This document shows, in pieces, positions 41,524 through 62,281 of a DNA stretch of 64,000 nt (the stretch's first letter is position 1; every line of letters begins with the position of its first letter). The position numbers were made by a program, and so were the translations under genes. The notes under the pieces were generated by a model. That model searched no databases. It worked only from the letters and a program-made list of their open reading frames with translations, and was not told the origin of the DNA. Source of the DNA: Thermodesulfobacteriota bacterium (GTDB taxonomy: Bacteria; Desulfobacterota; Desulfobaccia; Desulfobaccales; 0-14-0-80-60-11). The DNA is taken from contig JBMORF010000076.1 of assembly GCA_049322315.1 (NCBI GenBank), positions 73,221 through 137,220 on the forward strand, given 5' to 3'.

Positions 41524-41542
41524 CCGAATGCAGAGGGATGAT

Positions 41543-44561: not shown

Positions 44562-44577
44562 AGTGGTCAGTGGTCAG
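44562..44577 (+). repeat. Heptamer tract, agtggtc/agtggtc
   Basis: agtggtcagtggtcag abuts the helicase ATG (44561) and contains the stop of ORF 44574..44933. Confidence 0.7.
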
Positions 44578-45037: not shown

Positions 45038-45082
45038 CTACTGACCACTGATTACTGATCCCTGGCCCCTAATCCCTAACCC
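45038..45082 (+). repeat. Mixed heptamer tract (ctgacca/ctgatta/ctgatcc, cccctaa-type)
   Basis: ctgaccactgattactgatccctggcccctaatccctaacccc. Confidence 0.7.
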
Positions 45083-45279
45083 CAATACGGTTCACTTAAG
45101 AGGTTAGGAATCGGTGGGCAGTGCCCACCCTACGTTATGTCATTCTGAACGGAGCGAAGCGGAGGGAAGAATCTCTGCTTCTCCAGGAAGTTAGAAATTA
45201 TTCGGTTGCCTCCGGCTCCCTGAGAATGACATTTTAAATGACTTCCTTTCATCTTGATACGCCTAAGTGAACAGCATTG
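45083..45279 (+). mobile_element. 197-bp MITE, copy B1
   Basis: TIRs are caatacggttcacttaag ... c(c/t)taagtgaacagcattg. It contains an internal ggtgggcagtgcccaccc hairpin and a gtcattctgaacggagcgaagcgg...gctccctgagaatgac inverted pair. Near-identical copy at 62051-62247. Confidence 0.8.
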
Positions 45280-45340
45280 CCCCTAACCCCTAACCCCTAA
45301 CCCCTGCCCACTGGCTACTGACTACTGGCTACTGGCTACT
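45280..45340 (+). repeat. Heptamer tracts, cccctaa x3 then ctggcta/ctgacta x4
   Basis: cccctaacccctaacccctaacccctgcccactggctactgactactggctactggctact. Overlaps the stop codon of 45340..46413. Confidence 0.85.
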
Positions 45341-46413
45341 CACTTCGTGCCCACGTCCACGTGCTCCCAGTCCGTGGTGTTGAAGTTATAGTAGAACCAT
45401 TCCTGGGGCAGGCGGCAGCCCAGCCATTTGGCCGTGGTGTAGACCCAGCCGGGCATGTTCCGGGCATCGAGTTTATGCATGGCGTCCCGGTTGAACTGGC
45501 GGATGGAATCGCTGATGGGATTGGGGGAGCCGTCCTTGACGCCGTTACCCCGGAAATTATAGTCATTCAGGTCCAGGGCCAGTCCTAAGCGGTGGTTGGA
45601 GCCGGGAGAATGGCGGCCGTGGTACATGGCGGCCCAATCCGGGAATTGGCACAGGGCCACGGTGGCGGCCAGAGAAGCGCCTTTCTCGTCCGGGAAGCTC
45701 AGGCACTCCGCAATAACCGGGGCGCCGCCGGCCTTGGCCGAGAAGGTGTCTTCTCCTCCTCTTACCACTAACAGGGGCACCCGGCGGTTGACGTCGTAGT
45801 AGCCCTCCCGGAAGATGTATTCCAGGAGCAGGCCCACCAGGGGCGCGAATTTGCTGTTGATTTCGATCTGCAATCGCTCTATCCGGTAATGGGCCTTATC
45901 GTTAATGGCCCTCATTTTCCCCACGTGCCAGACATAGCCGCAGGGCCGGTGCGGGTTCGCCGCCACGGTCTGCCATTTCTTCTCGAAGCCGCAGTAAGTC
46001 TTGATCTTTTTGGCCCCGGCGGGCACCCAGACGGGAACACTCAAAGTCACCCCCACCTGGTCGCCCTGGGGAAAGCGGCGGCGGCGCAGGTCCTCCCAGG
46101 AGACTTCCCCGCATAAGGGCCTTAAGTTCAGGGTTTGATGGCGCAGTTCCACCAGGCGCCCAACGCCCAACAGCCTTTTGGCTAGGCGCACCTTGGTGAG
46201 AAAGTCCCGATCCCGGTCCCGGGGCGTCATCTGGGGGTCATATTTCAGGGCCACCTGGCGCATAACCCTAACGGCCTGGGGGGCCTGGGAAGTTTCCAGA
46301 ATATCAGGTGGGGAAGGGGCGACGCCGGCGCCCCGTGCTGCGGCCGGCCAGCCCGGGGTGAGGCAGATCGCCAGGACCAATAACGCCAGGACGGACCGGG
46401 ATCGCATGGCCAT
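45340..46413 (-). CDS. Secreted peptidase-M15-like (VanY / D-Ala-D-Ala carboxypeptidase fold) protein
   Basis: Start at MAMRSRSVLALLVLAICL (signal peptide). Zn motif 'SNHRLGLALDL' (Hx6D). C-terminal 'DWEHVDVG' supplies the second His. Confidence 0.55.
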   Translation of the reverse strand: MAMRSRSVLALLVLAICLTPGWPAAARGAGVAPSPPDILETSQAPQAVRVMRQVALKYDPQMTPRDRDRDFLTKVRLAKRLLGVGRLVELRHQTLNLRPLCGEVSWEDLRRRRFPQGDQVGVTLSVPVWVPAGAKKIKTYCGFEKKWQTVAANPHRPCGYVWHVGKMRAINDKAHYRIERLQIEINSKFAPLVGLLLEYIFREGYYDVNRRVPLLVVRGGEDTFSAKAGGAPVIAECLSFPDEKGASLAATVALCQFPDWAAMYHGRHSPGSNHRLGLALDLNDYNFRGNGVKDGSPNPISDSIRQFNRDAMHKLDARNMPGWVYTTAKWLGCRLPQEWFYYNFNTTDWEHVDVGTK

Positions 46414-46492
46414 TATTGTATGTGAGCCGGGGAGGGCAGTCAACGCGAGAATGACTTGGCCCCGGAAGAAGAAGATAAAGCACCTGATGGTG

Positions 46493-46672
46493 TTAGGATT
46501 TTTCTTTCTTCGCGTATTTCTGGGGCTCCGCCGCGAACTTCTCTTTACAGAGTTTGGAGCAGAAATAATAAACCTCATCTTCAAAATCGTACATGTGCTT
46601 GCCGTGGATTTCGCTCAGTTCCATATTGCAGACCGGGTCGATGTCACACTTGGGTTTTTCTACCGCAGACAT
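46493..46672 (-). CDS. YHS/TRASH-domain metal-binding protein
   Basis: Start at MSAVEKPK (a ggggagga SD lies upstream). 'DPVCNMEL...YYFCSKLCKEKF'. Confidence 0.7.
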   Translation of the reverse strand: MSAVEKPKCDIDPVCNMELSEIHGKHMYDFEDEVYYFCSKLCKEKFAAEPQKYAKKEKS

Positions 46673-46828: not shown

Positions 46829-46915
46829 TTAACCCCCCTTTCCTAAAGGGGGGGCAGGGGGGATTCTTGTAAGCCTTTAAAATCCCCCTAAATCCCCCTT
46901 TAGAAAAGGGGGACT
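46829..46915. repeat. ccccc/ggggg-box repeat, inverted dimer, copy C1
   Basis: aacccccctttcctaaagggggggcaggggggatt ... aaatccccctaaatccccctttagaaaagggggac. Confidence 0.8.
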
Positions 46916-46979
46916 TTAGAAGGTCTTGGAAGGACCAAATATATTAGCTGACATACAATATATCAAATATAACAGCAGG

Positions 46980-48152
46980 TTATTGGGCCTCAAGGATGAA
47001 GCACTTGAGGTAGAGACTTTCCGGCAAAGACAGCAGCGCCGGGTGGTCTCTAGACGCGCCCCGGCGTTCAATGAGCCGGGCCTGGCGGTGGGCGTCGGCC
47101 GCGGCCTGGCGGACGATCTCCAGGAATTCCGGTTCGCTCAGGTTGTAGGAGCAGGAGCAGGTGATGAGCACCCCCCCGGGATTGAGGAGTTGGAAGGCCC
47201 GGCGGTTGATCTCAAGGTAGCCTTTGATGGCGCTCTCCCGGTCCCGGCGGCTCTTGGCGAACGCCGGGGGATCAAGCACAATGCAGTCAAAGCGCCGCCC
47301 CTGGGCCACCGCCTCTTTCAGGAAGGCGAAGACGTTTTCTTTCACCGGCTCCAGATTATCTAGATGATTAAGCCTGGCGTTCTCCTGAGCCCGGCTGAGC
47401 GCGGCCCCGGAGCTTTCCACCAGAGTTACTTTTTTACATTGCCGGGCCAGATGCAGGGCAAAGCCTCCCTGGTAGCTGAAGCAATCCAGGGCTTCACCTT
47501 GGGCATAAGTCGCCGCGGCCAGGTGGTTTTCCCGCTGGTCCAGGAAAAGGCCGGTCTTCTGGCCCCCCCTAAGGTCCACCAGGAAGCGCACCCCGCCTGC
47601 GGCCACCTCCACCAGGGGGGGCAGCTCCCCCCGGACGGTGGCTACTTCCCGGGGCAGACCCTCCAGACGCCGCACCTCCACGTCATTCCTTAAGGTGATA
47701 GATAGGGGAGTAAGATATTCTGTAAGAATATCAATCATTTCCGGCAGCACGGCCTCCATTCCCGGGTGCAGGACCTGGAGGGCCAGATGCCCGGCGTAAT
47801 GGTCAACGATCAGCCCCGGAAAGCCGTCCGCTTCTCCGTAAATCAAGCGGTAAGCCTCGGTGTCCGCCACCACCTGTTGCCGGTAGGCCCAAGCCTGCTT
47901 CAGGCGCTTTTCCCAGAAGCCCCGGTCGAGGGCTTCATCCTGATAAGTGACAAATCTCAAGGCGATACGGGATTTGGCGCTGTAGCAGGCCCGGCCCAGA
48001 AAGCGGCCTTGATGGTCCAGGACCCGCACCCAGGCCCCTCCAGGCAGCTCCGGGGGGGACACCGCCAGGTCATTCAAGTAGATCCAGGGGTGCCCGGTGC
48101 GCTGCCAGCGCCAACCCTTGGCCGTGAGACGCACCTCCGGCAACTGCGACAT
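46980..48152 (-). CDS. rlmI: 23S rRNA m5C methyltransferase RlmI-like (PUA plus class I MTase)
   Basis: 'GHPWIYLNDL' PUA/EEHEE N-terminus, 'ALDCFSYQGGFALHLA' motif I and 'IVLDPPAFAKS' motif IV. Confidence 0.8.
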   Translation of the reverse strand: MSQLPEVRLTAKGWRWQRTGHPWIYLNDLAVSPPELPGGAWVRVLDHQGRFLGRACYSAKSRIALRFVTYQDEALDRGFWEKRLKQAWAYRQQVVADTEAYRLIYGEADGFPGLIVDHYAGHLALQVLHPGMEAVLPEMIDILTEYLTPLSITLRNDVEVRRLEGLPREVATVRGELPPLVEVAAGGVRFLVDLRGGQKTGLFLDQRENHLAAATYAQGEALDCFSYQGGFALHLARQCKKVTLVESSGAALSRAQENARLNHLDNLEPVKENVFAFLKEAVAQGRRFDCIVLDPPAFAKSRRDRESAIKGYLEINRRAFQLLNPGGVLITCSCSYNLSEPEFLEIVRQAAADAHRQARLIERRGASRDHPALLSLPESLYLKCFILEAQ

Positions 48153-48170
48153 GATGACTCCGTTTTGTGT

Positions 48171-48201
48171 CAGTAGTCAGTGGTCAGTGGCCAGTGGCCA
48201 G
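48171..48201 (+). repeat. Heptamer tract, cagtagt/cagtggt/cagtggc
   Basis: cagtagtcagtggtcagtggccagtggccag begins 19 nt upstream of the rlmI start codon. Confidence 0.85.
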
Positions 48202-49976: not shown

Positions 49977-50044
49977 GAAAAACTCTAAGTAAATTCCTTA
50001 ACCGAAAAAATTTAAAATTGTGATCTCTGCGAAGTGCCTCTTTT

Positions 50045-50178
50045 GCCATTCTGAACGGAGCGCAGCGCAAGAATCTCGTTTTTGGCAGCACAGCTTTTCC
50101 GCCACATACTGATAATTACTACCTGATTGGGATTCCTGGGCGCTAACATGCGAGATCCTTCACTGCGTTCAGGATGAC
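50045..50178. repeat. 'cattctgaacggagcg' hairpin element (related to the MITE B core)
   Basis: gccattctgaacggagcgcagcgcaagaatctcg ... cgagatccttcactgcgttcaggatgac. Confidence 0.7.
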
Positions 50179-50228
50179 AGAAAAACAGATTCTGTCATTA
50201 TCTTGCCCCTGGTAAAAATAACTTCTTG

Positions 50229-50265
50229 AAAATCCCCCTAAATCCCCCTTTAATAAAGGGGGACT
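50229..50265 (+). repeat. ccccc/ggggg-box repeat unit, copy C2
   Basis: aaatccccctaaatccccctttaataaagggggac. Confidence 0.8.
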
Positions 50266-50270
50266 TTTAA

Positions 50271-50349
50271 GGCTTGGTTATAGGCCCGAAGGCTTGGTTA
50301 TAGGCCCGAAGGCTTGGTTATAGGCCCGAAGGCTTGGTTATAGGCCCGG
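50271..50349 (+). repeat. Perfect 20-bp tandem repeat x4
   Basis: (ggcttggttataggcccgaa) x4; only the last base of the fourth unit differs. Confidence 0.95.
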
Positions 50350-50415: not shown

Positions 50416-50454
50416 ATCCCCCCCTTTTCTAAAGGGGGGCCAGGGGGGATTTTT
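50416..50454 (-). repeat. ccccc/ggggg-box repeat unit, copy C3 (inverted relative to C2)
   Basis: atcccccccttttctaaaggggggccaggggggattttt ends 17 nt before the methyltransferase ATG. Confidence 0.8.
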
Positions 50455-50471: not shown

Positions 50472-52097
50472 ATGGCCGACTGGAAAAACCAGCTCTTTTT
50501 CGGGGACAACCTGGAGATACTCCGGGAGCACATCCCCGTGAACAGCGTGGACCTGATCTACCTGGACCCGCCTTTTAACTCCAAGGCCACCTACAACGTC
50601 CTGTTCGCGGAAAAAAGCGGCGAGAAGTCCGCGGCCCAGATCACCGCGTTCGAGGACACCTGGCACTGGGGCCGGGAGTCCGAGGCCGCCTACCACGAAG
50701 TGGTGACCCTGGGTCCCCGGAAGCTCTCCGACCTTCTCCAGGCCCTGCGCAGCTTTTTGGGCGCCAACGACATGATGGCCTACCTCACCATGATGGCCGT
50801 GCGCCTGGTGGAACTCCACCGGGTCCTGAAGGCCACGGGGAGTATTTATCTGCATTGTGATCCCACGGCGAGCCATTATCTGAAACTTGTCTTGGATTCA
50901 ATTTTTTCACCTTATAATTTTAGAAATGAAATTACATGGCGAAGATCCCACCCGAAAGGCCATGCCTTCAAAAGATTTGCTCGGAACCATGATATAATTT
51001 TTGCTTATGCAAAAGAATTTCGCAATGTTACGTGGAATCCCCAATTTAAACAACATGATATTGAAAAAGTATCTAAACAATATACTCTTAAAGATGCAGA
51101 TGGAAGGCTCTATCAATTAACAAGTTTATTAAACCCAAACCCTGACCGCCCAAATCTTACTTATGAATTTTTGGGAGTGACAAAAGTATGGCGTTGGACC
51201 AAAGATCGCATGTTAGAAGAGCTTTTAAAAGGTCGGATAATTGTCCCTAAAGGAGGGAGAGGAATTCCTCGTTATAAAAGGTATCTAGATGAACAAGAAG
51301 GAGTTCCTATTGATGACTTTTGGTACGATATTGAATTCCCTGCCGGAAGTGAACGCCTCGGCTACCCCACCCAAAAACCCGAAGCCCTGCTAGAACGTAT
51401 CATCCAGGCCGGTAGCAATGAAGGGGACGTAGTCTTGGACCCCTTCTGCGGTTGCGGCACCGCGCTCATCGCCGCGGAACGCTTAAAGCGCCGCTGGCTG
51501 GGCATCGACATCACCCACCTGGCCATCACCCTCATAAAGAACCGCCTGCACGACACCTTCGGCCCGGACCTGGCGTCTTTCGAGGTCATCGGCGAGCCCG
51601 CGGACTTGACCAGCGCCCAGGCCCTGGCCCAGGAAAACCGCCATCAGTTCGAATATTGGGCCTTGGGCCTGGTGGACGCCCGCCCCGCCCAGGATAAGAA
51701 AAAGGGCGCGGACTCCGGCGTGGACGGCATTATAGACTTTAACGACGACAACAGCGGCATCTATAAAAAATTGGTTATCCAGGTGAAGAGCGGCCACGTG
51801 GCGGCAGCCCAAATCCGGGACCTGAAAGGGGTGCGGGAGCGGGAGAAGGCACCCATCGCCGCGTTTATCACCCTTAACCCCCCTACCCGGCCCATGAAGG
51901 AGGAGGCCGCGGCCGCGGGCTTCTATGAGCCGGAACACTTCCCCGGCCATCGCTACCCCCGGGTGCAGATTCTCACCATCGCCGAAATTTTCGGGGGCAA
52001 GACCCTGGAGTACCCCCGCTTCGCCCTCCCCGGCACCTTCAAAAAGGCGGTCCGCCGCCGCCGGGACCCGGGGGACAAGCAGGATAAGCTGCTATGA
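50472..52097 (+). CDS. Beta-class N4/N6 DNA methyltransferase with a C-terminal Mrr-like nuclease-fold domain
   Basis: Motif IV '[11 protein letters not shown]' comes first, and motif I '[28 protein letters not shown]' comes later (beta order). The tail is listed as the next feature. No separate REase gene is adjacent. Confidence 0.85.
51640..51890 (+). other. Mrr_cat-like (PD-(D/E)xK) domain in the methyltransferase tail
   Basis: '[31 protein letters not shown]' matches the D...(E/Q)xK pattern of Mrr-type restriction endonuclease domains. Confidence 0.5.
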
Positions 52098-52113
52098 TTT
52101 TCCCGTTGCCTTT

Positions 52114-52191
52114 GTCATTCTGAGGGAGCCGCAGGCGACAAGAATCTCTAAAGGCGAGATTCTTCACTCCGCTGCGCTCCGTTCAGAATGA
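52114..52191. repeat. 'gtcattctga...tcagaatgac' hairpin element
   Basis: gtcattctgagggagccgcaggcgacaagaatctc-taaaggc-gagattcttcactccgctgcgctccgttcagaatgac. Confidence 0.8.
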
Positions 52192-52214
52192 CAAAATGAC
52201 CAATAATGCCAGAT

Positions 52215-52412
52215 ACCTAAAACCTAAAACCTAAAACCTAAAACCAAGACCCAAGAACCAAGACCCAAGACCCAAGACCCAAGAACCAAGACCCAAGAAC
52301 CAAGACCCAAGAACCAAGAACCAAGAACCAAGACCCAAGAACCAAGAACCAAGACCCAAGAACCAAGAACCAAGAACCAAGAACCAAGAACCAAGAACCA
52401 AGAACCTAAAAA
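52215..52412 (+). repeat. Long heptanucleotide tandem array (acctaaa x4, then ccaagaa/ccaagac for about 24 units)
   Basis: 198 nt of uninterrupted 7-nt periodicity, ending 10 nt upstream of the waaA ATG. ORF 52231..52491 (LGSWF repeats) is its translation artefact. Confidence 0.95.
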
Positions 52413-52422
52413 CCGCCTCTAA

Positions 52423-53730
52423 ATGATTCCTTTCTATAAAACCGTCAGCACCCTGGCCGGCCTCCTGGGCTGGCCATATTTCTATTGGCATCTGAAGCGC
52501 CGGGGCTTAGGCGAGAGTTTTTTGCCCCGCCTGGGGGTGGCACTACCCCCCCCTCCCCCGCCGGGCCAGCCCCGCCTCTGGCTCCATGGCGTTTCCGTGG
52601 GGGAAATCCTGGCGGCTGCGCCCCTGTTTCAGGAAATAAAGCGCCTCCTGCCCCAGGCGGCCCTTACCATCACCACGGGCACGGAAACCGGCCAGGCCGT
52701 GGCCCGGAAGAATTATGCACCCTTAGGCGCGCAGGTCTGCTACTTCCCCCTGGATATTCCCTGGGCCGTGGCTCGCTACCTGCGGCATCTTCAGCCCCGG
52801 GTCTTTGTCACCCTGGAATCGGAGCTTTGGCCCAACTTCCTGACCCAGGCCCATGAGGCGGGGGTGCGCCTGGCCTTGGTCAATGGCCGGCTGTCCGATA
52901 AATCCTTCAGAAGGTTTATTAAATATAGGCGGTATGTTATTGATATATTAGATTATATTGAAGTATATGCCGCGGGTTCTCCCCAGGATTACGAACGCTA
53001 TCAGGCCTTGGGGCTGGACCCCGGCAAGCTCCATCTCACCGGCAACCTCAAGATCGACCGCCTCCTGATGGCCCGGGAACCGCAAAAAGTGGCGGAATTT
53101 CGCGGGATTTTGCACCTGGACAGGGATTTATCGCCGCCGCCCCCCGTCTTCCTGGCCGCGTCCACCCACCCCGGAGAAGAAGACGTGGTCCTGGAGGCTT
53201 ATCAGGAATTACGGGCCCCCTACCCTGCTCTACTCCTCCTTTTGGCCCCCCGCCATCCGGAACGGGCCCCGGAGTTGGGCCGTCTGCTGCAAGAATTCCA
53301 TCTGCCCTGCCATTACTTCAGCCGCCTGAAAGAAGGCCGGGAAAGCCGGGTGCACCCGGTGGTCATCATCGACACCATCGGCGACCTTTTCACTCTTTAC
53401 GGCCTGGCGACCGCGGCCCTGGTGGGCGGCAGCCTGGTGCCCCACGGCGGCCAGAATATCCTGGAACCCGCGGCCTGGGGACTGTCTCCCATTTACGGCC
53501 GGCACCTGGATAATTTCCGTTGGGCCGAAGCCATCCTTAGGGAAGCCCAAGCCGGGACCCTGATCCGGGACGTGTCTTCCCTGACAGAAGCCCTCCGCCG
53601 CCATCTGGACCACCCGGAGGAAGTCCGGGCGGCAGGGTTACGGGCCCAAAACGCGCTCAGCCTCCACCAGGGCGCGGCCCGACGCCAGGCGGAGTTGATT
53701 GTTAAGTTAGCAGTAAGCAGTGAGCAGTAA
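52423..53730 (+). CDS. waaA: 3-deoxy-D-manno-octulosonic acid (Kdo) transferase
   Basis: 'LWLHGVSVGEILAAAPLFQEIK', 'TTGTETG' and a GT-B C-terminal half. The last codons and stop lie inside the gcagtaa heptamers. Confidence 0.9.
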   Translation: MIPFYKTVSTLAGLLGWPYFYWHLKRRGLGESFLPRLGVALPPPPPPGQPRLWLHGVSVGEILAAAPLFQEIKRLLPQAALTITTGTETGQAVARKNYAPLGAQVCYFPLDIPWAVARYLRHLQPRVFVTLESELWPNFLTQAHEAGVRLALVNGRLSDKSFRRFIKYRRYVIDILDYIEVYAAGSPQDYERYQALGLDPGKLHLTGNLKIDRLLMAREPQKVAEFRGILHLDRDLSPPPPVFLAASTHPGEEDVVLEAYQELRAPYPALLLLLAPRHPERAPELGRLLQEFHLPCHYFSRLKEGRESRVHPVVIIDTIGDLFTLYGLATAALVGGSLVPHGGQNILEPAAWGLSPIYGRHLDNFRWAEAILREAQAGTLIRDVSSLTEALRRHLDHPEEVRAAGLRAQNALSLHQGAARRQAELIVKLAVSSEQ

Positions 53731-53734
53731 GCAG
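53710..53734 (+). repeat. Heptamer tract gcagtaa/gcagtga (left arm)
   Basis: gcagtaagcagtgagcagtaagcag is the reverse complement of the tract at 53896-53941. Confidence 0.85.
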
Positions 53735-53895
53735 TTATGCCTGAGTCTGGGGGGTAACCGTGAACCGGAAGAAGCTCTCCCCCCTCACCCCGGCCCTCTC
53801 CCCCCAGCAGGGGAAGAGGGAGTAATAACTCCTCAACTAAACTTTCAGGGCGGTAAGTACAGAATATCCCCAAAGTAATTTTATGGCCGCCGCCC

Positions 53896-53941
53896 ACTGC
53901 TTACTGCTTACTGCTTACTGCTTACTGCTTACTGCTCACTG
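53896..53941 (-). repeat. Heptamer tract ctgctta x5.5 (right arm, inverted)
   Basis: cactgcttactgcttactgcttactgcttactgctcactg. Confidence 0.9.
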
Positions 53942-54020
53942 TCCCCCCCTTTCCACTGGAAAAGTTCTGGGTTATAGGTTATATATTGAAAAAATAAAGG
54001 AAAATACCCATCTTTCTCTG

Positions 54021-55820
54021 ATGAAACGAGATCTGCAATTATATTTCCGGCTTTTACGGTATTTAAAACCCATGTGGCTGCGTTTTGTGGTGGCCACCGT
54101 AGCCATGCTGACGGTCTCCGCCATCACCGCCCTCCTGGCCTTCCTGGTGAAGCCGGTGTTGGACGACGTCTTTTTCGCCAAACGCGTGGAAATGCTCTAT
54201 CTGCTCCCTCTCCTGGTGGTGGTGCTCTATTTTGTCAAAGGAGTGATGACCTATACCCATCAATATCAGATGAGCTATATCGGCAACGGCACCATTAACC
54301 GCCTGCGGGACGAGCTTTTCTCCCATATCCAGCGCCAGTCCCTGTCCTTTTTCGACCACCAGCCCTCCGGGGAACTGATGAGCCGTATCGCCTATGACGT
54401 CAACCTCCTCCAGGAGTCGGTGACCCGGGTGGTCACCGGCTTTTTTAAGGACGCGTTCACGGCTGCCGGCCTCATTACCATCATTTTCTACCGGGAATGG
54501 CGCCTGGCTCTGATGGCCATCGTCGCCTTCCCCCTGGCGGTTTGGGTCATCGTCCGGGTGGGCAAACGCCTCCGCCGCATTTCCATCCATACCCAGGAGG
54601 CCATGGCCCGGCTCTATATCGTCCTCCAGGAGAGCATCGCCGGCCAACGCATCGTTAAGGCCTTCACCCGGGAAGACTATGAAAGCCGGCGGTTCGCCCG
54701 CCAAAACCTGGAGTATTTCCAGGCCCGGGTGAGACAGACCGCCACCCGGGAGCTGACGCCGCCCACCATGGAGATGCTGGGGGCTTTGGGCATGGCCGGC
54801 ATCATCTTTTACGGCGGTTATAACGTCATCCAGGGGACTTCCACCCCCGGCACCTTCTTTTCATTTCTGGCCGCCTTGTTGATGCTCTATCAGCCCGTCA
54901 AGGGGCTAAGCGGCGTGCATAACACCATCCAGGAAGGGCTGGCTGCGGCCCAGCGGGTCTTCGGCCTCCTGGATTTGGAGCCCTCCATCCAGGACCGCCC
55001 CGGGGCCCGGACCCTGCCGCCCATTTCCCGGGATATCGTCTATCAGGGGGTCTCCTTTACCTATGATGACCGTCCGGTGCTCCGGGAGATCGACCTGACG
55101 GTGCGCCGGGGAGAGATGCTGGCCCTGGTGGGTCCCAGCGGCGCCGGGAAAACCACGCTACTTAACCTTCTGCCCCGCTTCTATGAGGTGACCCAGGGGG
55201 CCATCCTGATCGACGGCCAGGACCTCCGGGAGGTGACCCTGGACTCGCTGCGGGCCCAGATGGGGCTGGTGACCCAGCAGACCATCCTCTTCAACGACAC
55301 GGTGCGCTACAACGTGGCCTACGGCCGCATCGAGGCCGGGGAAGAGGAAATCATCGACGCGCTCAAAGCGGCGTATGCTTATGATTTTGTCATGCAGCTC
55401 CCTAAAGGCCTGGATACCATGATCGGCGAGCAGGGGGTGCGGCTGTCCGGCGGTGAACGCCAGCGCCTGGCCATCGCCCGGGCCTTGCTCAAGGACCCCC
55501 CCATCCTCATTTTGGATGAAGCCACCTCGTCTCTCGACTCCGAAGCCGAACGGGAGGTGCAACAAGCCCTGGACCAGCTCATCAAAGGCCGCACCACCCT
55601 GGTCATCGCCCATCGCCTCTCCACCGTCCGCAATGCCGACCGTATCATCGTCCTGGCCGAGGGCCGCATTGTCGAAGTGGGCTCCCACGGGGAACTGATG
55701 CAACAGGACGGCCTCTATAAGCGCCTCTACGAGATGCAGTTTAGGGAAGAAGAGGTGGAGGAGGCGGAGGAAGAGCTAAAGGATAGTTCAAGGTTCAAGG
55801 TTCAAAGTTCAAGGTTATAG
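54021..55820 (+). CDS. msbA: Lipid A export ABC transporter (MsbA)
   Basis: Start at MKRDLQLYFRLLRY (the track ORF starts at 53883, inside the heptamers). Six TM segments, Walker A 'GPSGAGKTT', 'LSGGERQR' and 'ILILDEATS'. The last ~10 codons are encoded by aaggttc heptamers. Confidence 0.9.
   Translation: MKRDLQLYFRLLRYLKPMWLRFVVATVAMLTVSAITALLAFLVKPVLDDVFFAKRVEMLYLLPLLVVVLYFVKGVMTYTHQYQMSYIGNGTINRLRDELFSHIQRQSLSFFDHQPSGELMSRIAYDVNLLQESVTRVVTGFFKDAFTAAGLITIIFYREWRLALMAIVAFPLAVWVIVRVGKRLRRISIHTQEAMARLYIVLQESIAGQRIVKAFTREDYESRRFARQNLEYFQARVRQTATRELTPPTMEMLGALGMAGIIFYGGYNVIQGTSTPGTFFSFLAALLMLYQPVKGLSGVHNTIQEGLAAAQRVFGLLDLEPSIQDRPGARTLPPISRDIVYQGVSFTYDDRPVLREIDLTVRRGEMLALVGPSGAGKTTLLNLLPRFYEVTQGAILIDGQDLREVTLDSLRAQMGLVTQQTILFNDTVRYNVAYGRIEAGEEEIIDALKAAYAYDFVMQLPKGLDTMIGEQGVRLSGGERQRLAIARALLKDPPILILDEATSSLDSEAEREVQQALDQLIKGRTTLVIAHRLSTVRNADRIIVLAEGRIVEVGSHGELMQQDGLYKRLYEMQFREEEVEEAEEELKDSSRFKVQSSRL
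55786..55816 (+). repeat. Heptamer tract, gttcaag/gttcaaa
   Basis: gttcaaggttcaaggttcaaagttcaaggtt covers the msbA 3' end. Confidence 0.85.
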
Positions 55821-56505: not shown

Positions 56506-57591
56506 ATGCGCGTCCCCCTTCAAAACCTTTTTGACCGCCTCCAGGATCAGAACGCGGTCTCCCCTCCCGGCTTACCTCTAAAGGCCCTGGCCGCGGCCCT
56601 GGCGGGGTTTTACGGTCTCGGGGCCAGAACCCGCCGGGCCCTCTATACCCAAGGCTGGTTGAAGGTGAAACGCCTGCCTGCGCCCGTAATCAGCGTGGGC
56701 AACCTCACCGTGGGGGGCACGGGGAAGACCCCCATGGCGGCCTGCCTGGCCCGGCTCTTACAGGGCCAGGGGCAAAAAGTGGCCATTCTCAGCCGGGGTT
56801 ACGGGGGCGCAGCAAAAAACGTCATCTGCATTTCTGACGGACGGCAGATCTACCAAAAACCTCCGGAAGTGGGGGAAGAGGCTTACTGGCTGGCCAAGAG
56901 CCTCCCCGGCGTGGCGGTGTATACCGGATTGTCACGCTATGCCGCGGGCCTGGCGGCCTGGCGGGAGATCCAGCCGGATTTTTTTATATTGGATGATGGC
57001 TTTCAGCACTTTCAACTGCATCGAGACCTGGACGTGGCGCTCCTGGACGCTCAAGCGCCTTTTGGCAACGGCTATCTCCTGCCCCGGGGTCCCTTAAGGG
57101 AGCCTAGGGCCACGCTGAAGACCGCCGGGGTGCTGGTCCTCACCCGTTTCCAGGCCGAGGCGCATCAGGACCGGCTGGCTTTCCTGCAACGGCAATTTCC
57201 CGGCAAAACCGTGCTCACTGCGGCCATCTTGCCCACCGGCGCCCGGATTTATTCGGAAGGCCGGGGCATTTCTCTGCCCAGTCTTAAGAACCAAAAACTC
57301 CTGGCCTTCGCGGGTCTGGCCCGGCCCCAAGTCTTTTCTGACACCCTCCGGGACCTGGGGGTGAATCTTTTAGGCTGCCGGGACTTCCCGGACCATTACG
57401 CCTTTCAAGCCCGCGACCTGGAGAGCCTGGTAAAAGAGGGCCAAACCCTGGGGGCCGCGGGTCTCATCACCACTGCCAAAGACTGGGCTCGCCTGGGGGA
57501 CAGATGGGATTGGCCCACGCCGCTTTATGTCCTGGAGGTGGAAGCGCGGCTGGATGGGGAGGGGGAAGAGAAAATATTAGAAATTTTGGGG
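56506..57591 (+). other. lpxK: Tetraacyldisaccharide 4'-kinase portion
   Basis: 'VISVGNLTVGGTGKTP' P-loop, 'ILSRGYGG' and 'ILDDGFQH'. About 362 aa, the normal LpxK length. Confidence 0.85.
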
Positions 57592-58938
57592 GATGCTGCC
57601 GGTTTCGGCTACGGGAAAGAAGCCTGTTCCTCTGGAAAGGGACATTCTTCTCGTAGGGGCGAACCTGGTGTTCGCCCCGGGCCTGGGCGAACACCAGGTT
57701 CGCCCCTACAAATTAACAGATGTTTAACTGTAACAAAGCATAATGCCTCGTATCCTAACATTGTGGCCGGGTTTGACTGCTTTCCCCGGCAGATACCTGA
57801 CATCACCTCCCCTGAACAACCCCTCCCTCTCCCCCCGGAGGTCAAGCAACGCTTTGGGGAATTGCGGGTGAGGGGCCAGGGGAAAATTGATCCGCAAAAG
57901 GTGCGGCGCCTCCTGGTCCGGGTCCCCAACTGGGTGGGGGACGCGGTCATGAGCCTGCCCACCCTGGCCGGGGTGCAGGCGCTCTTCCCCCAGGCGGAGA
58001 TTACGGTGCTGGCCGCACCCCGGGTGGCGCCCCTTTTTGCTGGCATCCCCGGAGTGTTCCAGGTGGTAGTCTATCCCGACGGAGGAGAAAAATGGCGTAT
58101 TCTTTGGCGTATGCGCCAGGGGCAGACAATTTACGAAAAACGAAAAACGAAAAACGAAAAACTTTCTTTCGATTTAGGTCTATCTCTCCCCAATTCCTGG
58201 GAAGCGGCCTTGGGCCTGTGGCTGGCCGGGGCCGAAACCCGGCTGGGCTACGCCACCCAGGGGCGGGGGCTTTTGCTCAACTTGGCGGTAACGGGGATGG
58301 ATTCTCTGGCGGGCCTGCACACGGTTTATTATCTCCTGGGGGTGCTCCAGGGCCTGGGCGGAGTGGATTTTATTGTCAGTCCCCGGCTTTATCTCCGGGA
58401 TGATGAAGTGCAGGAGGCGGCCGCGCTCTTAAAGACTAGTCAAGGGCAGGGACCCTGGGTGGGGCTGAGCCCGGGCGCGGCTTTCGGCCCGGCCAAACGC
58501 TGGCCCCCGGAGCGTTTCGCCGCTTTGGGTCAAGAGCTGCAAGCTGAATTCGGGGCCCGCCTGGTGCTGTTGGGCGGTCCGGAGGACCGGGAGACGGCCG
58601 CGAAGGTTAAGGAGCGGCTCCCCGGCGCCCTGGACCTGGTGGGCCGCACCACCTTGCGCCAGGCCCTGGGCGTGTTGACCCGGCTTTCCCTGTTAATCAC
58701 CAATGATTCCGGATTGATGCACGCGGCTGCGGCCTTGGGCGCCCCCCAGGTGGCCCTCTTCGGCTCCACCGACCCCACGGCCACCGGGCCGTTTACTGAT
58801 CGGGCCACGGTGCTCCGGCACCCCCTGCCTTGCAGCCCTTGTTTTAAGCGCACCTGTGACCTGGATTACCGGTGCCTGCTGGATATCAGCGTGCCGGAAG
58901 TCCTGGACGCGGCTAAGGGATGGCTGAAGGAAGGATAA
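56506..58938 (+). CDS. Continuous 810-aa ORF encoding LpxK then WaaF, joined by a ~100-codon non-conserved linker
   Basis: One open frame in the track. The two conserved halves are listed as the next two features. The linker contains the GEPCVRP hairpin A4. Confidence 0.7.
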   Translation: MRVPLQNLFDRLQDQNAVSPPGLPLKALAAALAGFYGLGARTRRALYTQGWLKVKRLPAPVISVGNLTVGGTGKTPMAACLARLLQGQGQKVAILSRGYGGAAKNVICISDGRQIYQKPPEVGEEAYWLAKSLPGVAVYTGLSRYAAGLAAWREIQPDFFILDDGFQHFQLHRDLDVALLDAQAPFGNGYLLPRGPLREPRATLKTAGVLVLTRFQAEAHQDRLAFLQRQFPGKTVLTAAILPTGARIYSEGRGISLPSLKNQKLLAFAGLARPQVFSDTLRDLGVNLLGCRDFPDHYAFQARDLESLVKEGQTLGAAGLITTAKDWARLGDRWDWPTPLYVLEVEARLDGEGEEKILEILGDAAGFGYGKEACSSGKGHSSRRGEPGVRPGPGRTPGSPLQINRCLTVTKHNASYPNIVAGFDCFPRQIPDITSPEQPLPLPPEVKQRFGELRVRGQGKIDPQKVRRLLVRVPNWVGDAVMSLPTLAGVQALFPQAEITVLAAPRVAPLFAGIPGVFQVVVYPDGGEKWRILWRMRQGQTIYEKRKTKNEKLSFDLGLSLPNSWEAALGLWLAGAETRLGYATQGRGLLLNLAVTGMDSLAGLHTVYYLLGVLQGLGGVDFIVSPRLYLRDDEVQEAAALLKTSQGQGPWVGLSPGAAFGPAKRWPPERFAALGQELQAEFGARLVLLGGPEDRETAAKVKERLPGALDLVGRTTLRQALGVLTRLSLLITNDSGLMHAAAALGAPQVALFGSTDPTATGPFTDRATVLRHPLPCSPCFKRTCDLDYRCLLDISVPEVLDAAKGWLKEG
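57653..57709. repeat. GEPCVRP-hairpin element, copy A4 (intragenic, compensated variant)
   Basis: gtaggggcgaacctggtgttcgcccc-N8-gggcgaacaccaggttcgcccctac. Both arms carry the matching change (ccttgtg to cctggtg, cacaagg to caccagg). Translated as RRGEPGVRPGPGRTPGSPLQ. Confidence 0.85.
57901..58938 (+). other. waaF: ADP-heptose:LPS heptosyltransferase II (GT9) portion
   Basis: From the GTG at 57901. 'LLVRVPNWVGDAVMSLPTL', 'LPNSWEAAL', 'GLSPGAAFGPAKRWPPERFAAL' and 'TNDSGLMHAAAALG' are collinear with E. coli WaaF. Confidence 0.8.
58133..58162 (+). repeat. Heptamer tract acgaaaa x4, inside the waaF coding sequence
   Basis: acgaaaaacgaaaaacgaaaaacgaaaaac is translated as ..YEKRKTKNEKL.., an insertion relative to E. 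coli WaaF between 'LREK' and 'RYDRAYVLPNSF'. Confidence 0.9.
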
Positions 58939-59498
58939 TGAAAGAGATTGCGGTCTTTCTCGATCGGGACGGGACCATCAATGAACAGATGGGATATATC
59001 AACCACCTGAGCCGTTTTGTACTACTGCCCCGGAGCGCGGCGGCCATCAAGCTGCTCAATGATGCGGGGCTCAAGGTAGTGGTGGTTACCAACCAAGCCG
59101 GCGCGGCCCGGGGTTACTACCCTCCATCCCTGGTGCAGGAAGTCCATGCCCTCATGCAAAATCTACTGGCCGCGGCGGGAGCGCGGCTGGACGCCATATA
59201 CGCCTGCACCCACGGCCCCCGTGATGACTGCGCCTGCCGCAAACCCCAGCCAGGCTTGATTTTACAGGCCGCAAAGGAACTTAATCTGGATCTCTCCCGG
59301 TCCTACCTGGTGGGGGACCGGTATAATGATATCGAAACCGGGGCCAGGGCCGGGGTCCAGGGAATTTTGGTGCTCACCGGCTATGGCCGGGGGGAATACG
59401 AGCATTTTGCACCCACTTGGGACATCAGTCCGGTGCACGTGGCCGCGGACCTTTGGGACGCAGCGGCGTGGATCATCAAGGAACTGGATAAAGCTTAA
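58938..59498 (+). CDS. gmhB: D-glycero-beta-D-manno-heptose-1,7-bisphosphate 7-phosphatase
   Basis: Start at MKEIAVFLDRDGTIN (DxDxT), overlapping the upstream stop (ataatg). 'VVVTNQAG' and the Zn-site 'CTHGPRDDCACRKP'. Confidence 0.85.
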   Translation: MKEIAVFLDRDGTINEQMGYINHLSRFVLLPRSAAAIKLLNDAGLKVVVVTNQAGAARGYYPPSLVQEVHALMQNLLAAAGARLDAIYACTHGPRDDCACRKPQPGLILQAAKELNLDLSRSYLVGDRYNDIETGARAGVQGILVLTGYGRGEYEHFAPTWDISPVHVAADLWDAAAWIIKELDKA

Positions 59499-59562: not shown

Positions 59563-59646
59563 AGTCCCCCTTTATAAAGGGGGATTAGGGGGATTTTTCG
59601 AGGACTTATAAAATCCCCCCTACCCCCCTTTAGAAAAGGGGGGAAT
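59563..59646. repeat. ccccc/ggggg-box repeat, inverted dimer, copy C4
   Basis: agtccccctttataaagggggattagggggattttt ... aaaatcccccctacccccctttagaaaagggggga. Confidence 0.8.
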
Positions 59647-59676
59647 TTTTGTCGTTGCTTTTTTTCGACTATTACT

Positions 59677-60756
59677 ATGATTAGGCATCAACCCCGCATT
59701 TTAATGATCAAACTCAGCGCCTTCGGGGACGTGCTCCATACCCTGCCGACGCTGGAGGCCCTCAGGGCCGCGTTTCCGGAAGGGGACATCACCTGGCTGG
59801 TGGAAGCCCAATTTGCGCCGCTCTTAGAGGGACACCCGGCCTTGGATGCAGTCTGGGCCGTGCCCCGGGTGCGCCTGGGGCAAAAGGTCTCCCGGCGGGA
59901 GTTGCAGGACCTGTTCCGGCTGGCGCGCCGGGTGCGGACCACCCCCTTCGACCTGGTTATCGACCTCCAGGGGCTGCTGAAGAGCGCCCTGTGGACGTCC
60001 CTGGCCAAAAGCCCCCGGAAAGTGGGCTACGACCGCACCCGGGAAATGAGCTATCTGGCCCTGACGGAGCGGCTGCCGCCCTACGCCCGGGAGGCCCATG
60101 CGGTCTGGCGCTACCTGAACGTGGCCCGCTACCTGGGCGCCCCCCCTGCCCTGCCCAAGTTTAGATTGGGATTGAGGCCGGTTTTTCCTGATGCCTTATT
60201 CCAGACAGTCAATGTAGGGGCGAATCTTGTATTCGCCCAAACCCCAGGGCGAACACAAGGTTCGCCCCTACGAGGAAATACCTCTTTGGTGGCGCTTCAC
60301 CCCGGGGCGCGTTGGCCCACCAAAATCTGGCCGCCTTCGTCCTGGGCGCATTTGGCGGATTGGCTCATCCGGGAAAAAGGTTTGAGGGTGGTCCTCACCG
60401 GCAGCGGTGCCGACCGGGAACTGGCGGATCAAATTTGTGCGCAGATGCATGAGAAAGCCCTGAACCTGGCGGGACGAATGACCCTGGCGGAATTAGCCGG
60501 GGTCCTGCAACTAGCCAGGCTAGCCGTCACCGCGGACACCGGCCCCATGCACCTGGCCGCGGCTTTAGGCACCCCGGTGGTGGCCATCTTCGGCCCCACC
60601 GCGCCGGGGCGCAGCGGCCCCTTCGGGGCAGGACACCGGGTGGTGCGCTTAGGCGTGGCCTGCAGCCCCTGCTTTAAAAGACGCTGCCAGGAACCCCGGT
60701 GCCTGACGGACCTGGCCCCGGAGGCGGTGCAGGCGGTAGTGGAGAAATCCTTGTGA
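59677..60756 (+). CDS. waaC: ADP-heptose:LPS heptosyltransferase I (GT9) carrying an in-frame hairpin-repeat insertion
   Basis: 'ILMIKLSAFGDVLHTLPTLEALR', 'DLQGLLKSALWTSL', 'TADTGPMHLAAALGTPVVAIFGPT'. It is collinear with E. coli WaaC except for ..VNVGANLVFAQTPGRTQGSPLRGNTS.. (repeat A5). Confidence 0.8.
   Translation: MIRHQPRILMIKLSAFGDVLHTLPTLEALRAAFPEGDITWLVEAQFAPLLEGHPALDAVWAVPRVRLGQKVSRRELQDLFRLARRVRTTPFDLVIDLQGLLKSALWTSLAKSPRKVGYDRTREMSYLALTERLPPYAREAHAVWRYLNVARYLGAPPALPKFRLGLRPVFPDALFQTVNVGANLVFAQTPGRTQGSPLRGNTSLVALHPGARWPTKIWPPSSWAHLADWLIREKGLRVVLTGSGADRELADQICAQMHEKALNLAGRMTLAELAGVLQLARLAVTADTGPMHLAAALGTPVVAIFGPTAPGRSGPFGAGHRVVRLGVACSPCFKRRCQEPRCLTDLAPEAVQAVVEKSL
60214..60271. repeat. 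GEPCVRP-hairpin element, copy A5 (intragenic in waaC)
   Basis: gtaggggcgaatcttgtattcgccc-N8-gggcgaacacaaggttcgcccctac. The left arm has two substitutions. Confidence 0.85.
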
Positions 60757-60789: not shown

Positions 60790-60861
60790 TACAGCCTGGC
60801 TATAAACGGCTATATCACCGGCCAGACCTTGAACGTCAACGGCGGCTGGTACATGAGTTAG
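60790..60861 (+). pseudogene. C-terminal remnant of a FabG-like short-chain dehydrogenase
   Basis: My translation of the 23-codon open frame after a TAG is YSLAINGYITGQTLNVNGGWYMS*. 'ITGQTLxVNGG.YM' is the characteristic SDR/FabG C-terminus. No upstream body exists. Confidence 0.45.
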
Positions 60862-60866
60862 AGACA

Positions 60867-60946
60867 GTTTTCCGTTTACCGTTTTCAGTTTTCCGCCAAA
60901 AGCAGGAATGAAAGCTCTACGGAAAACGGAAAACGGATGAAAACGG
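60867..60946. repeat. Inverted heptamer-arm hairpin (ttttccg / cggaaaa)
   Basis: gttttccgtttaccgttttcagttttccg ... cggaaaacggaaaacggatgaaaacgg ends 7 nt before the trm112-like ATG. Confidence 0.75.
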
Positions 60947-60953
60947 AGGCGTT

Positions 60954-61124
60954 ATGGCCATCAGTAAAGAGCTTCTGGAGATTTTAGCCTGCCCCCAATG
61001 CAAGGGGGACATCCACTTGAATGACAAGGGCGACGGCCTCATCTGCGACAAGTGCAAATTGCTTTACGAAATCAAGGATGACATCCCCATCATGCTCATC
61101 GACGAGGCCAAACCCTTTAAATAA
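60954..61124 (+). CDS. Trm112/YcaR-family small zinc-ribbon protein (UPF0434)
   Basis: 56 aa, so below the track cut-off. My translation is MAISKELLEILACPQCKGDIHLNDKGDGLICDKCKLLYEIKDDIPIMLIDEAKPFK, with the CPxC...CxxC and 'IPIML.DEA' signature. E. coli ycaR lies near lpxK and kdsB. Confidence 0.75.
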   Translation: MAISKELLEILACPQCKGDIHLNDKGDGLICDKCKLLYEIKDDIPIMLIDEAKPFK

Positions 61125-61125
61125 T

Positions 61126-61213
61126 CGTTTTTCGTTTTTCGTTTTGCGTTTCCCGTAAATGAAAAAAGACCTTCCGGGAAGCACGAAAAACGAAAAACGA
61201 AAAACGAAAAACG
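61126..61213. repeat. Inverted heptamer-arm hairpin (cgttttt / acgaaaa x4)
   Basis: cgtttttcgtttttcgttttgcgtttcccg-loop-cgggaagcacgaaaaacgaaaaacgaaaaacgaaaaacg. The right arm ends 4 nt before the GT2 ATG. Confidence 0.85.
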
Positions 61214-61217
61214 TACC

Positions 61218-61982: not shown

Positions 61983-62013
61983 TCGTCCAGGGCGAACACA
62001 AGGTTCGCCCCCA
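61954..62013. repeat. GEPCVRP-hairpin element, copy A6
   Basis: gtaggggcgaaccttgtgttcgccc-gtaatcgtcca-gggcgaacacaaggttcgcccccac. The spacer supplies the GT2 stop codon. Confidence 0.85.
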
Positions 62014-62050
62014 CGAAAATAACTATTTTGATGAAAAATCGGCCTAATAC

Positions 62051-62247: not shown

Positions 62248-62281
62248 GGTCTAAGAACGCATCCCGAGGAACAGACTTTTA

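Follow-up and report, generated by a model that had tools for sequence, protein, structure and literature searches.

Heptanucleotide tandem repeats at gene boundaries of Desulfobaccales and an array of about 28 units upstream of waaA

The window analysed here is a stretch of 64,000 nucleotides from a Thermodesulfobacteriota bacterium of the order Desulfobaccales (contig JBMORF010000076.1 of assembly GCA_049322315.1, positions 73,221 to 137,220). Upstream of waaA, the gene for the Kdo transferase, it carries a head-to-tail array of about 28 heptanucleotide units (52215-52414), and further heptamer tracts are located at the boundaries of other genes. These tracts belong to the class of heptanucleotide repeats known as long simple sequence repeats (LSSR) or short tandemly repeated repetitive sequences (STRR). 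New is the lineage, not the kind of element. The features of this class are all present: tandem 7-nt units in at least three copies, an excess of period 7, dispersed and mostly intergenic loci (as seen in the window and in the neighbourhoods of waaA in relatives), and copy-number steps of 7 nt. We lean towards the view that the waaA array is a strongly expanded, slippage-driven heptamer microsatellite of this type, which forms an unstructured leader devoid of a Shine-Dalgarno motif and possibly serves as a spacer for ribosome loading.

The array was delineated with Tandem Repeats Finder (TRF) and our own scans. According to the unit list it consists of four ACCTAAA units, 23 units of ACCAAGA or CCCAAGA, one further ACCTAAA and a partial AACC. 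TRF reports a 5' block, (ACCTAAA)x4.4, at 52215-52245 (+; score 62, 100% matches) and the main block, (CCAAGAA/CCAAGAC)x23, at 52244-52406 (+; score 274). The array is bracketed by ACCTAAA units. C-variant units are mostly found in the 5' half of the main block and the 3' part is homogeneous, the final 7 units all being ACCAAGA. The end of the array is at 52406 if only perfect units are taken and at 52414 with the partial unit, and the ATG of waaA is at 52423; depending on how the last partial unit is counted the gap is 9-16 nt, i.e., the array is positioned just upstream of waaA as the original prediction had it. The interval 52407-52422 (+) comprises the final ACCTAAA unit and the conserved pre-ATG spacer; the 16 nt between the last perfect unit and the ATG read TAAAAACCGCCTCTAA. 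waaA itself (52423-53730, +) is identified by Pfam Glycos_transf_N (PF04413, E = 7.5e-54), and its last 8 codons together with the stop codon are encoded by another heptamer tract.

For 150 nt of the array leader RNA, folding predicts no structure (minimum free energy 0 kcal/mol). Within the array there is neither an ATG, GTG or TTG nor a stop codon. The earlier suggestion that the array occupies the place of the waaA promoter and ribosome-binding site needs correction. The conserved 16-nt spacer intervenes, a Shine-Dalgarno motif is absent before waaA in the window and in every relative read, with or without a tract, and a scan of 51800-54200 predicted no sigma-70-like promoter on the + strand, including the region upstream of waaA. 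Two other identities were considered for the array and rejected. A G-quadruplex requires at least four runs of at least three G, whereas the complement (TTCTTGG)n has G runs of two at most; a CRISPR was ruled out on sequence.

The periodicity is highly specific. In the window, perfect tracts of at least three units number 10 at period 7 and zero at periods 1-6 and 8-13. With mismatches allowed, the window has 14 period-7 tracts as against 0-1 for periods 4-12, and first-order Markov simulations of the window yield 0.06 period-7 tracts on average and 1 at the maximum. The total for the window is 14-16 tracts, so the initial count of at least 14 holds, and all eight unit types then listed are present. 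The same picture emerges when the window is combined with 53 genome loci (865 kb): 107 tracts have period 7, 23 have period 6, and periods 4, 5, 8, and 9 account for at most 5 each.

These loci are related waaA loci, designated by L-numbers (L002, L003, etc.); genome and metagenome loci together comprise 1.42 Mb. Across them tract density follows relatedness to the window. Loci with a WaaA identity of at least 69% have 2.2-4.1 period-7 tracts per 10 kb, other Desulfobaccales 0.6-1.0, and the outgroups (Smithella, Syntrophales, Megamonas) 0.18. By WaaA, the nearest relatives (63-89% identity) without exception belong to metagenome-assembled genomes (MAGs) from groundwater, sediments and lakes which are classed as Desulfobaccales or 'Desulfobacca' or are unclassified deltaproteobacteria, so the first impression of STRR-like repeats in a deltaproteobacterial-type anaerobe was correct. 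In the literature searched, heptamer repeats are not reported from Desulfobaccales or other deltaproteobacteria. In the related loci the tracts are evenly distributed over +/-10 kb around waaA and are not piled on waaA. A specific clustering at genes for lipopolysaccharide (LPS) was rejected on account of this spread and because non-LPS genes are flanked as well.

Most telling is the comparison of orthologous sites. A heptamer tract 7-16 nt before the waaA start exists in every readable relative with at least 72% WaaA identity (L002, L003, L004, L054, L056, L057/L109, and L058), and with the window included the tracts range from 2.5 to 28 units. The units differ: (AAAACCG)x3.5 in L004, (AAACCGG)x2.5 in L054, (AAAACTG)x4.5 in L002, (AAACTAA)x5 in L057 and identically in L109, a mixture of AAACCG, AAAACCA and AAAACT units in L058, (AACCAAG)x2.5, AAAACTA and then (TAACTGA)x3 in L056, and (AAGACCM)x8 followed by (GAAAACA)x4 in L003. 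Upstream of waaA in L055, (AACTAAA)x2.5 is followed by a degenerate ACTGNNN array. The window, L003, L004, and L054 have the pre-ATG motif AAAACCG(C/T)(C/T)TCT in common. In more distant Desulfobaccales waaA is positioned directly behind a NUDIX gene and has no tract.

Because an exact-match scan of metagenome contigs with the right flank of the array, AAAACCGCCTCTAAATGATTCC, returned 0 matches, strain-level variation was examined in the orthologous tract of L004 and L054. Over about 1.2 kb the two have an identity of about 98.5%. If one disregards roughly 25 nt at the L054 contig end, where the alignment is poor, there is a single indel, which is exactly one 7-nt unit in the waaA-leader tract. 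Copy-number variability, as foreseen in the original prediction, is thus real between strains and between species. It is the ordinary 7-nt indel behaviour known from Cyanothece, in which strains differ by 7-nt indels in heptamer repeats (PMC4679880).

Position is likewise preserved while units turn over at three other sites: the waaA-msbA hairpin, the helicase start and the N-domain of a GT9 protein. The inverted arms of the hairpin are orthologous in the window, L002, L005, L047, L055, L056, and L058. At the helicase start the tract is AAAACCG in L005, L019, L030, and L051 and GACCACT in the window. The GT9 N-domain is part of a fusion of LpxK with a GT9 heptosyltransferase-like domain in one ORF (open reading frame) of about 800-820 aa, conserved in four species (window 56506-58938, +; L003 5065-7461; L005 13409-15877; L047 13978-16428). 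In this domain each species has an in-frame tract with a unit of its own; the loop encoded by it is variable (K/R/E/T/N), and the flanks on both sides are perfectly conserved. In the window it is (ACGAAAA)x4.3 (58133-58162, +; loop YEKRKTKNEKL), and tracts with other units occupy the same position in L003, L005, and L047. Evidently, sites persist across a protein divergence of roughly 30%, whereas their units change.

The units themselves are a restricted set. After removal of redundancy, 147 tracts remain in the window and the waaA neighbourhoods, and they represent more than 40 canonical units. About 70 tracts, roughly half, have A-rich AAAAC(N)G-like units (AAAACCG 23, AAAACGG 10, AAAACAG 9; further AAACTCG, AAAAACC, AAAAACG, AAAAACT, and AAAACTG). 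One third (49 tracts) contain ACTG or CAGT, compared to 6.5 expected when letters are shuffled within units. In degenerate arrays the ACTG core is fixed and the other positions drift; this is seen upstream of waaA in L055, in the right arms of L002 and L005, and at 48169-48201 of the window. The units of the waaA array, CCAAGAA and ACCTAAA, are outliers and fit poorly to either family. Relatives of its unit are found only at the orthologous site, as AACCAAG (x2.5) in L056 and as AAGACCC/AAGACCA (about x8) in L003.

Approximately 86% of all tracts are not deep inside ORFs, and their orientation follows the genes. Where the genes on both sides of a spacer run in the same direction, 18 of 21 tracts that are A-rich in sense are nearer to the downstream start (median 16 nt). 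CAGT-sense tracts are positioned at the upstream stop in 15 of 15 cases with a median overlap of -1. In part this follows of itself, as every reading frame of (CAGTRAN)n contains a stop. Tracts which are T-rich in sense come after stops and ACTG-sense tracts are placed toward the next start. When divergent and convergent spacers are examined, a comparison in which the direction of replication is constant, 19 of 22 A-class tracts obey the same rule, A-rich toward the 5' end and T-rich toward the 3' end of genes. Of 19 tracts ending 0-30 nt before a predicted start, 17 are A-rich or ACTG when read in sense; of the other two, one was assigned to a spurious ORF opposite waaA.

Inverted pairs, the frequency of which had already been remarked upon, account for 12 of 42 neighbouring tract pairs. 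Three are in the window (53705/53896, 60867/60919, and 61125/61183). Between waaA and msbA, (AGCAGTR)x4 (53705-53735, +; TRF) forms the 5' arm and (ACTGCTT)x6.6 (53896-53941, +), upstream of the true msbA start, the 3' arm of a predicted hairpin. The arms are 94% complementary, and the fold of 53695-53950 has a 27-bp stem and -107.6 kcal/mol (z = -7.3). The 5' arm has TAA/TGA stops in all three frames and holds the waaA stop codon (53728-53730). The second predicted hairpin (60860-60945; -26.7 kcal/mol, z = -3.5) is built from T-rich (GTTTTCC)x4.1 after a GT9 gene (60867-60895, +; TRF) and A-rich (ACGGAAA)x2.7 (60919-60937, +), 16 nt before a Trm112-like ORF (60954-61124, +). The third (61120-61217; -38.4 kcal/mol, z = -6.5) consists of (TCGTTTT)x3.9 directly after the Trm112-like stop codon (61125-61151, +; TRF) and (ACGAAAA)x4.4 (61183-61213, +), which ends 4 nt before the ATG of the GT2 gene (61218); this gene has no Shine-Dalgarno motif.

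An identity of these hairpins as intrinsic terminators was rejected since no T run follows the 3' arms (53941 tcccccccttt; 60937 tgaaaacgg; 61213 taccATG). A terminator scan returned none at the waaA-msbA hairpin, whose 27-bp stem and 160-nt loop exceed the design of the scan, and none at the other hairpins. Rfam 15 returned nothing at gathering score for 36000-64000, only sub-threshold matches to generic hairpins (miRNA models). Among inverted pairs there is a bias in chirality, the CAGT or T-rich arm coming first by 10 to 1-2, to which we give no weight because six pairs represent one orthologous locus. The arms of the waaA-msbA hairpin comprise only two unit types, AGCAGT and ATCAGT. They match in 5 of 7 species compared to about 3.3 expected, and the mean duplex energy is -1.23 within and -1.15 between species, which is not significant. 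As, in addition, the species are not phylogenetically independent, compensatory evolution is not claimed.

How may such an array have come about? The ancestor of the clade would have possessed a short A-rich, AAAACCG-like heptamer tract directly upstream of the waaA start codon. This tract would have grown, shrunk and changed its unit by slipped-strand mispairing in 7-nt steps. Three observations suggest slipped-strand mispairing: an indel of one unit, a spread of unit numbers between 2.5 and 28, and an array which is nested and homogeneous toward its 3' end. Loops of 7 nt are too large for MutS-type mismatch repair. Inside the older tract a mutated unit may then have expanded in the succession ACCTAAA, ACCAAGA, CCCAAGA. 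The array would be part of the transcribed spacer or leader of waaA. Its RNA is predicted to be unstructured and is without start codons, stop codons or a Shine-Dalgarno motif; it would therefore be tolerated in a leader. Most plausibly the array functions as a ribosome-loading platform, i.e., as single-stranded A/C-rich RNA for a Shine-Dalgarno-independent loading such as is attributed to ribosomal protein S1 or to standby sites. The sister tracts follow a common pattern in which A-rich or ACTG arrays precede starts and CAGT or T-rich arrays sit on stop codons, and their inverted pairs would fold into long intercistronic hairpins which probably stabilise or process the operon mRNA.

Several observations weigh against this combined account. 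The strongly non-random units are not predicted by a purely neutral slippage on arbitrary seeds. A Shine-Dalgarno-like motif is present in 2 of 19 tract-preceded genes compared to 198 of 650 others, only a trend (p = 0.075) on crude start calls. Transcription of the array is inferred, the waaA promoter not having been located. The copy number of 28 comes from one assembly. A Logan unitig of 1.5 kb, the sole return of an exact-protein look-up of WaaA, is 100% identical to 52377-53924 of the window, yet it breaks inside both flanking tracts and so provides no independent copy number. Finally, the region from 1 to 37 kb is without any heptamer tract despite many intergenic gaps, about 15 of which exceed 200 nt. 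As moreover all related loci are waaA neighbourhoods, the genome-wide prevalence of the tracts is an extrapolation.

Of the alternatives, one fares best, although we consider it unlikely. Here, the arrays are binding sites for a dedicated nucleic-acid-binding factor, and slippage only provides the raw material for a regulon-like code at the transcriptional or post-transcriptional level: a lineage-specific protein would read A-rich or ACTG arrays at 5' ends and CAGT or T-rich arrays at 3' ends. Such a model has already been proposed for TAACTGA repeats in Beggiatoaceae (PMC4679880) and for heptamers in Nostoc, where deletion of the repeats alters reporter output (bioRxiv 10.1101/2022.06.06.494920). 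The two restricted motif families, the constant ACTG core in degenerate arrays, the strong gene-relative orientation and the conserved position under unit turnover would all suit a binding factor. On the other hand, no candidate protein emerged, the unit family switches at one orthologous site (AAAACCG versus GACCACT at the helicase start), the waaA array employs outlier units, and 28 units are far beyond the need of a binding site.

A broader proposal along these lines, to which we assign a still smaller likelihood, sees the tracts as a cross-phylum punctuation of operon mRNAs and not just as slippage debris. Arrays with an ACTG core or of the AAAAC(N)G type would mark 5' ends for Shine-Dalgarno-independent ribosome loading, and the complementary arrays would label 3' ends or fold into hairpins for processing. 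The reader would be a conserved cellular factor, be it ribosomal S1, a Csp-like protein, an RNase or another protein, and this would explain why arrays exist in cyanobacteria, Beggiatoaceae and Desulfobaccales. If so, waaA would carry, with its 28 units, an extreme allele of a functional element which sets the translation of an LPS-core gene.

That the array is a contingency locus, the copy number of which tunes or switches waaA and hence the expression of the LPS core within a population, is improbable. The location seems inviting: the array is immediately upstream of an LPS core gene and inside an LPS cluster (waaA, msbA, lpxK, two GT9, GT2, lpxA-like), tract length varies between strains and between species, and repeat number in a 5' untranslated region modulates expression of uspA2, as cited in PMC4679880. 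The phase-variable simple sequence repeat (SSR) loci in lipooligosaccharide and surface genes of Haemophilus, Neisseria, and Moraxella, among them the AGAT repeats in the 5' untranslated region of uspA2, are similar in that a tandem repeat beside an LPS gene changes its unit number by slippage. They differ from the present array, which is outside of ORF and promoter spacer and occurs in an environmental host; its 7-nt kind of tract is spread over the whole genome region, housekeeping genes included. The placement typical of phase-variable SSRs was rejected for the array. The array of 198 nt is not in an ORF and ends 9-16 nt before the ATG, it is not between promoter hexamers, for which it is too long as a -35/-10 spacer, and the scan found no nearby promoter. 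The same kinds of tracts flank housekeeping and non-surface genes, and in the strain pair L057/L109 the tracts are identical. As a free-living organism of the environment (the MAGs are from groundwater and sediment), the bacterium lacks the usual pressure exerted by a host. Further, waaA normally has an essential core function and is not a typical phase-variable gene. The role in phase variation which had been associated with copy-number changes was thus not borne out, and an on/off switching of waaA by the array is unsupported.

It is very improbable that the tracts are parts or by-products of mobile small repeat elements spread by transposition, akin to miniature inverted-repeat transposable elements (MITE) or repetitive extragenic palindromes (REP). 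Admittedly, small palindromic repeats of other families are densely dispersed over the region, and two MITE-like copies come close to tracts, one ending 15 nt before the large array and one about 45 nt before (CCCCTAA)n. However, units differ from locus to locus, common flanks, terminal inverted repeats or target duplications are missing, orthologous tracts exist in relatives without the MITE (L004, L056), and the strain difference is exactly one unit. An identity of the tracts as MITE or REP was rejected because units and flanks differ; true MITE/REP-like families are present as separate sequences. Lastly, a collapsed or inflated assembly hardly deserves consideration: short-read unitigs do break inside the tracts, which makes the copy number hard to assemble, but at the 3' junction of the array the independent unitig agrees exactly, the pattern of C and A unit variants is non-trivial, and orthologous arrays are found in several independent MAGs.

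The preferred reading, an expanded heptamer microsatellite, gains from a comparison with known systems. STRR heptamers were reportedly described by Mazel and colleagues in 1990 in heterocystous cyanobacteria; the units include CCCCAGT (STRR1), TTGGTCA, and CAACAGT (STRR3). Like these, the Desulfobaccales tracts have 7-nt units of several types per genome, are intergenic and form intercistronic hairpins from inverted arrays, and an ACTG/CAGT core is common to many units, STRR1 and STRR3 included. They differ by the host, which is of another phylum, and by an extra, dominant A-rich AAAAC(N)G family. The three STRR units are absent from the canonical units found here, and as both host and units differ the tracts are not STRR sensu stricto. 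In Nostoc and Anabaena, STRR hairpins between cistrons (hupS-hupL) were proposed to affect transcript stability or translational coupling (PMC2670836). Roles at the RNA level have thus been put forward for STRR hairpins (PMC2670836), for TAACTGA (PMC4679880) and for the recF/recO heptamers of Nostoc (bioRxiv 10.1101/2022.06.06.494920).

The closest description of the Desulfobaccales tracts is that of the TAACTGA repeats in marine Beggiatoaceae, some cyanobacteria and Bacteroidetes (MacGregor, 2015; PMC4679880). There, 132 of 170 sets are in forward orientation before start codons without ribosome-binding site, and some overlap the ends of upstream ORFs. Both have in common forward arrays a few nt before starts, the overlap with upstream ORF ends and 7-nt indels between close strains. 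In contrast to Beggiatoaceae, in which one unit dominates with 2-6 copies, we find many units, two families, inverted pairs and an array of 28 units. A TAACTGA type in the sense of the unit was rejected for the window, which has no such array. In 1.4 Mb there is one, (TAACTGA)x3 at 5972-5996 of L056, a Desulfobaccales metagenome contig, directly after (AACCAAG)x2.5 and 9 nt upstream of the waaA GTG.

An excess of heptanucleotide LSSRs in prokaryotes, for which an origin by slippage was proposed, is attributed to Mrazek, Guo & Shah (2007) in the summaries of PMC4679880 and PMC4692102. Over-representation of period 7, intergenic location, organisms not adapted to a host and the proposed slippage origin agree with our findings. 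As a difference, these two summaries name neither an example from Desulfobaccales or other deltaproteobacteria nor an orientation grammar relative to genes. In two species of Xanthomonas, GGGAATC heptamer arrays occupy the spacers between the same genes, although their length and sequence vary, and they form inverted pairs; in Nostoc GGGGA(T/C)T heptamers reach 26 units (Rehm et al., 2015; PMC4692102). Inverted pairs, a high unit number and a site which is kept while length and sequence vary thus have precedents. Unlike the waaA array, which cannot form a quadruplex, those repeats are G-rich and quadruplex-forming.

REPs are dispersed copies of one conserved palindrome which are mobilised by RAYT transposases and can stabilise upstream mRNA. 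Hairpins between genes of one operon and a high copy number in intergenic DNA are shared with REPs and bacterial interspersed mosaic elements (BIME) of enterobacteria; in the tracts reported here, however, the stems consist of heptamers amplified in place, with units specific to each locus.

Heptamer repeats have been known as a kind of element since 1990. The same phenomenon in an order of anaerobic sulfate reducers provides an independent lineage for comparative tests, in which orientation rules match those of Beggiatoaceae and the ACTG core recalls cyanobacterial STRR units. One relative, Desulfobacca acetoxidans, is in culture. The added value is modest: the orientation grammar, the two motif families and the conservation of sites under unit turnover. 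There are practical aspects as well. The tracts break short-read assemblies, the Logan unitig ending inside them, and they give rise to spurious ORF extensions or fusions in the annotation of MAGs, e.g., at the N-terminus of msbA and in the C-terminal codons of waaA. The longest msbA ORF, with its start at 53883, includes the (ACTGCTT)n tract at 53896-53941, which would thereby be translated. In relatives the real start (MKQDLKLYFRLL...) is downstream of the tract; accordingly, heptamer tracts inflate ORF predictions here.

All tracts of the window fall within 37-64 kb, and the clustering at gene boundaries initially reported was confirmed. It includes the stop codon of waaA inside 53705-53735. 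Further tracts outside of the hairpins are as follows. (ACGGAAA)x4.6 is at the 5' end of an AsnC/NirD-like gene (37168-37199, +; TRF). (GACCACT)x2.3 abuts the helicase start codon at 44561 (44562-44577, -; TRF), the site with AAAACCG tracts in orthologues. (CCCCTAA)x3.7 (45280-45305, +; TRF) is the only window tract of the G-quadruplex type, its complement (TTAGGGG)n being able to form such a structure. (ACTGGCT)x4.4 (45310-45340, +; TRF) contains the stop codon of the ORF 45340-46584 (-); the label 'M15 peptidase' formerly given to this ORF is unconfirmed, as there is no Pfam match even at E <= 1. (CACTGRC)x4.7 in sense reading (48169-48201, -; TRF) is 16 nt before a PUA-SAM methyltransferase gene (46980-48152, -; Pfam). 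(GTTCAAG)x4.4 (55786-55816, +; TRF) overlaps the 3' end of msbA (ORF end 55820), and (GAAAAAC)x4 (63279-63306, +; TRF) is assigned to the region between the convergent lpxA-like gene (62433-63239) and the ORF 63252-63980. Heptamer tracts therefore also adjoin non-surface genes, i.e., the helicase, an rRNA-methyltransferase-like gene and the AsnC/NirD-like regulator. The tract-free segment 1-37000 contains a 2650-aa polyketide-synthase-like gene (17215-25167), a sulfotransferase, radical-SAM genes and several PAS histidine kinases; its genes are mostly on the - strand.

The neighbourhood of the array is an LPS core cluster on the + strand. Upstream is the gene of a methylase-Mrr fusion (50472-52097, +), combining an N6/N4 DNA methylase domain with an Mrr-type restriction endonuclease domain; in the closest relatives, L004, L056, L057, and L109, this gene is likewise upstream of waaA in conserved synteny. 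Downstream of waaA follow the msbA-like ABC transporter (53883-55820, +), the LpxK-GT9 fusion, a HAD phosphatase (58920-59498, +), GT9 (59677-60756, +), the Trm112-like ORF, GT2 (61218-61982, +) and the lpxA-like gene (62433-63239, +).

Several other small repeat families share the region. Between the array and the methylase-Mrr gene upstream of it there is a MITE-like palindromic element, TGTCATTCTGAG...CAGAATGACA (52095-52200). Two copies, at 45135-45180 and 62103-62149, are 89% complementary to 52150-52196, which is inverted; the family core is TGTCATTCTGA(A/G)CGGAGCG(A/C)AGCGGAG..GAAGAATCTC and is also found at 50041-50067. The pair 45075-45286 and 62043-62254 is 91% identical over 212 nt. 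Two of the MITE-like copies closely precede heptamer tracts, one that of (ACCTAAA)n at 52215 and the other that of (CCCCTAA)n at 45280. A further dispersed palindrome, AAAATCCCCCTAAATCCCCCTTTAGAAAAGGGGGAC, is present at 46833-46917, 50218-50274, 50416-50454, 59564-59647, and 62266-62366, often as inverted pairs around genes, and similar elements are upstream of waaA in L002, L008, L055, and L063. About 120 nt upstream of the methylase-Mrr gene a perfect 20-mer, AAGGCTTGGTTATAGGCCCG, is repeated four times in tandem (50269-50348), the only long perfect non-heptamer repeat in the window.

Paired palindromes with the sequence GTAGGGGCGAACCTGGTGTTCGCCCC are at 57645-57712, 60212-60282, and 61943-62022. 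The first is in frame in the LpxK-GT9 linker, where it encodes ...RRGEPGVRPGPGRTPGSPL...; the others are inside the GT9 gene 59677-60756 and straddle the 3' end of GT2. These palindromes look like REP-like insertions tolerated in coding sequence. Finally, a small family with motifs of 8-10 nt, CGCAGAGG/CACAGAGA, followed by a GGCGCTTTGCGCC hairpin is found at 37649-37776, 38790-38877, and 41537-41627; direct and inverted copies flank genes, and a related element occurs after waaA in L003.

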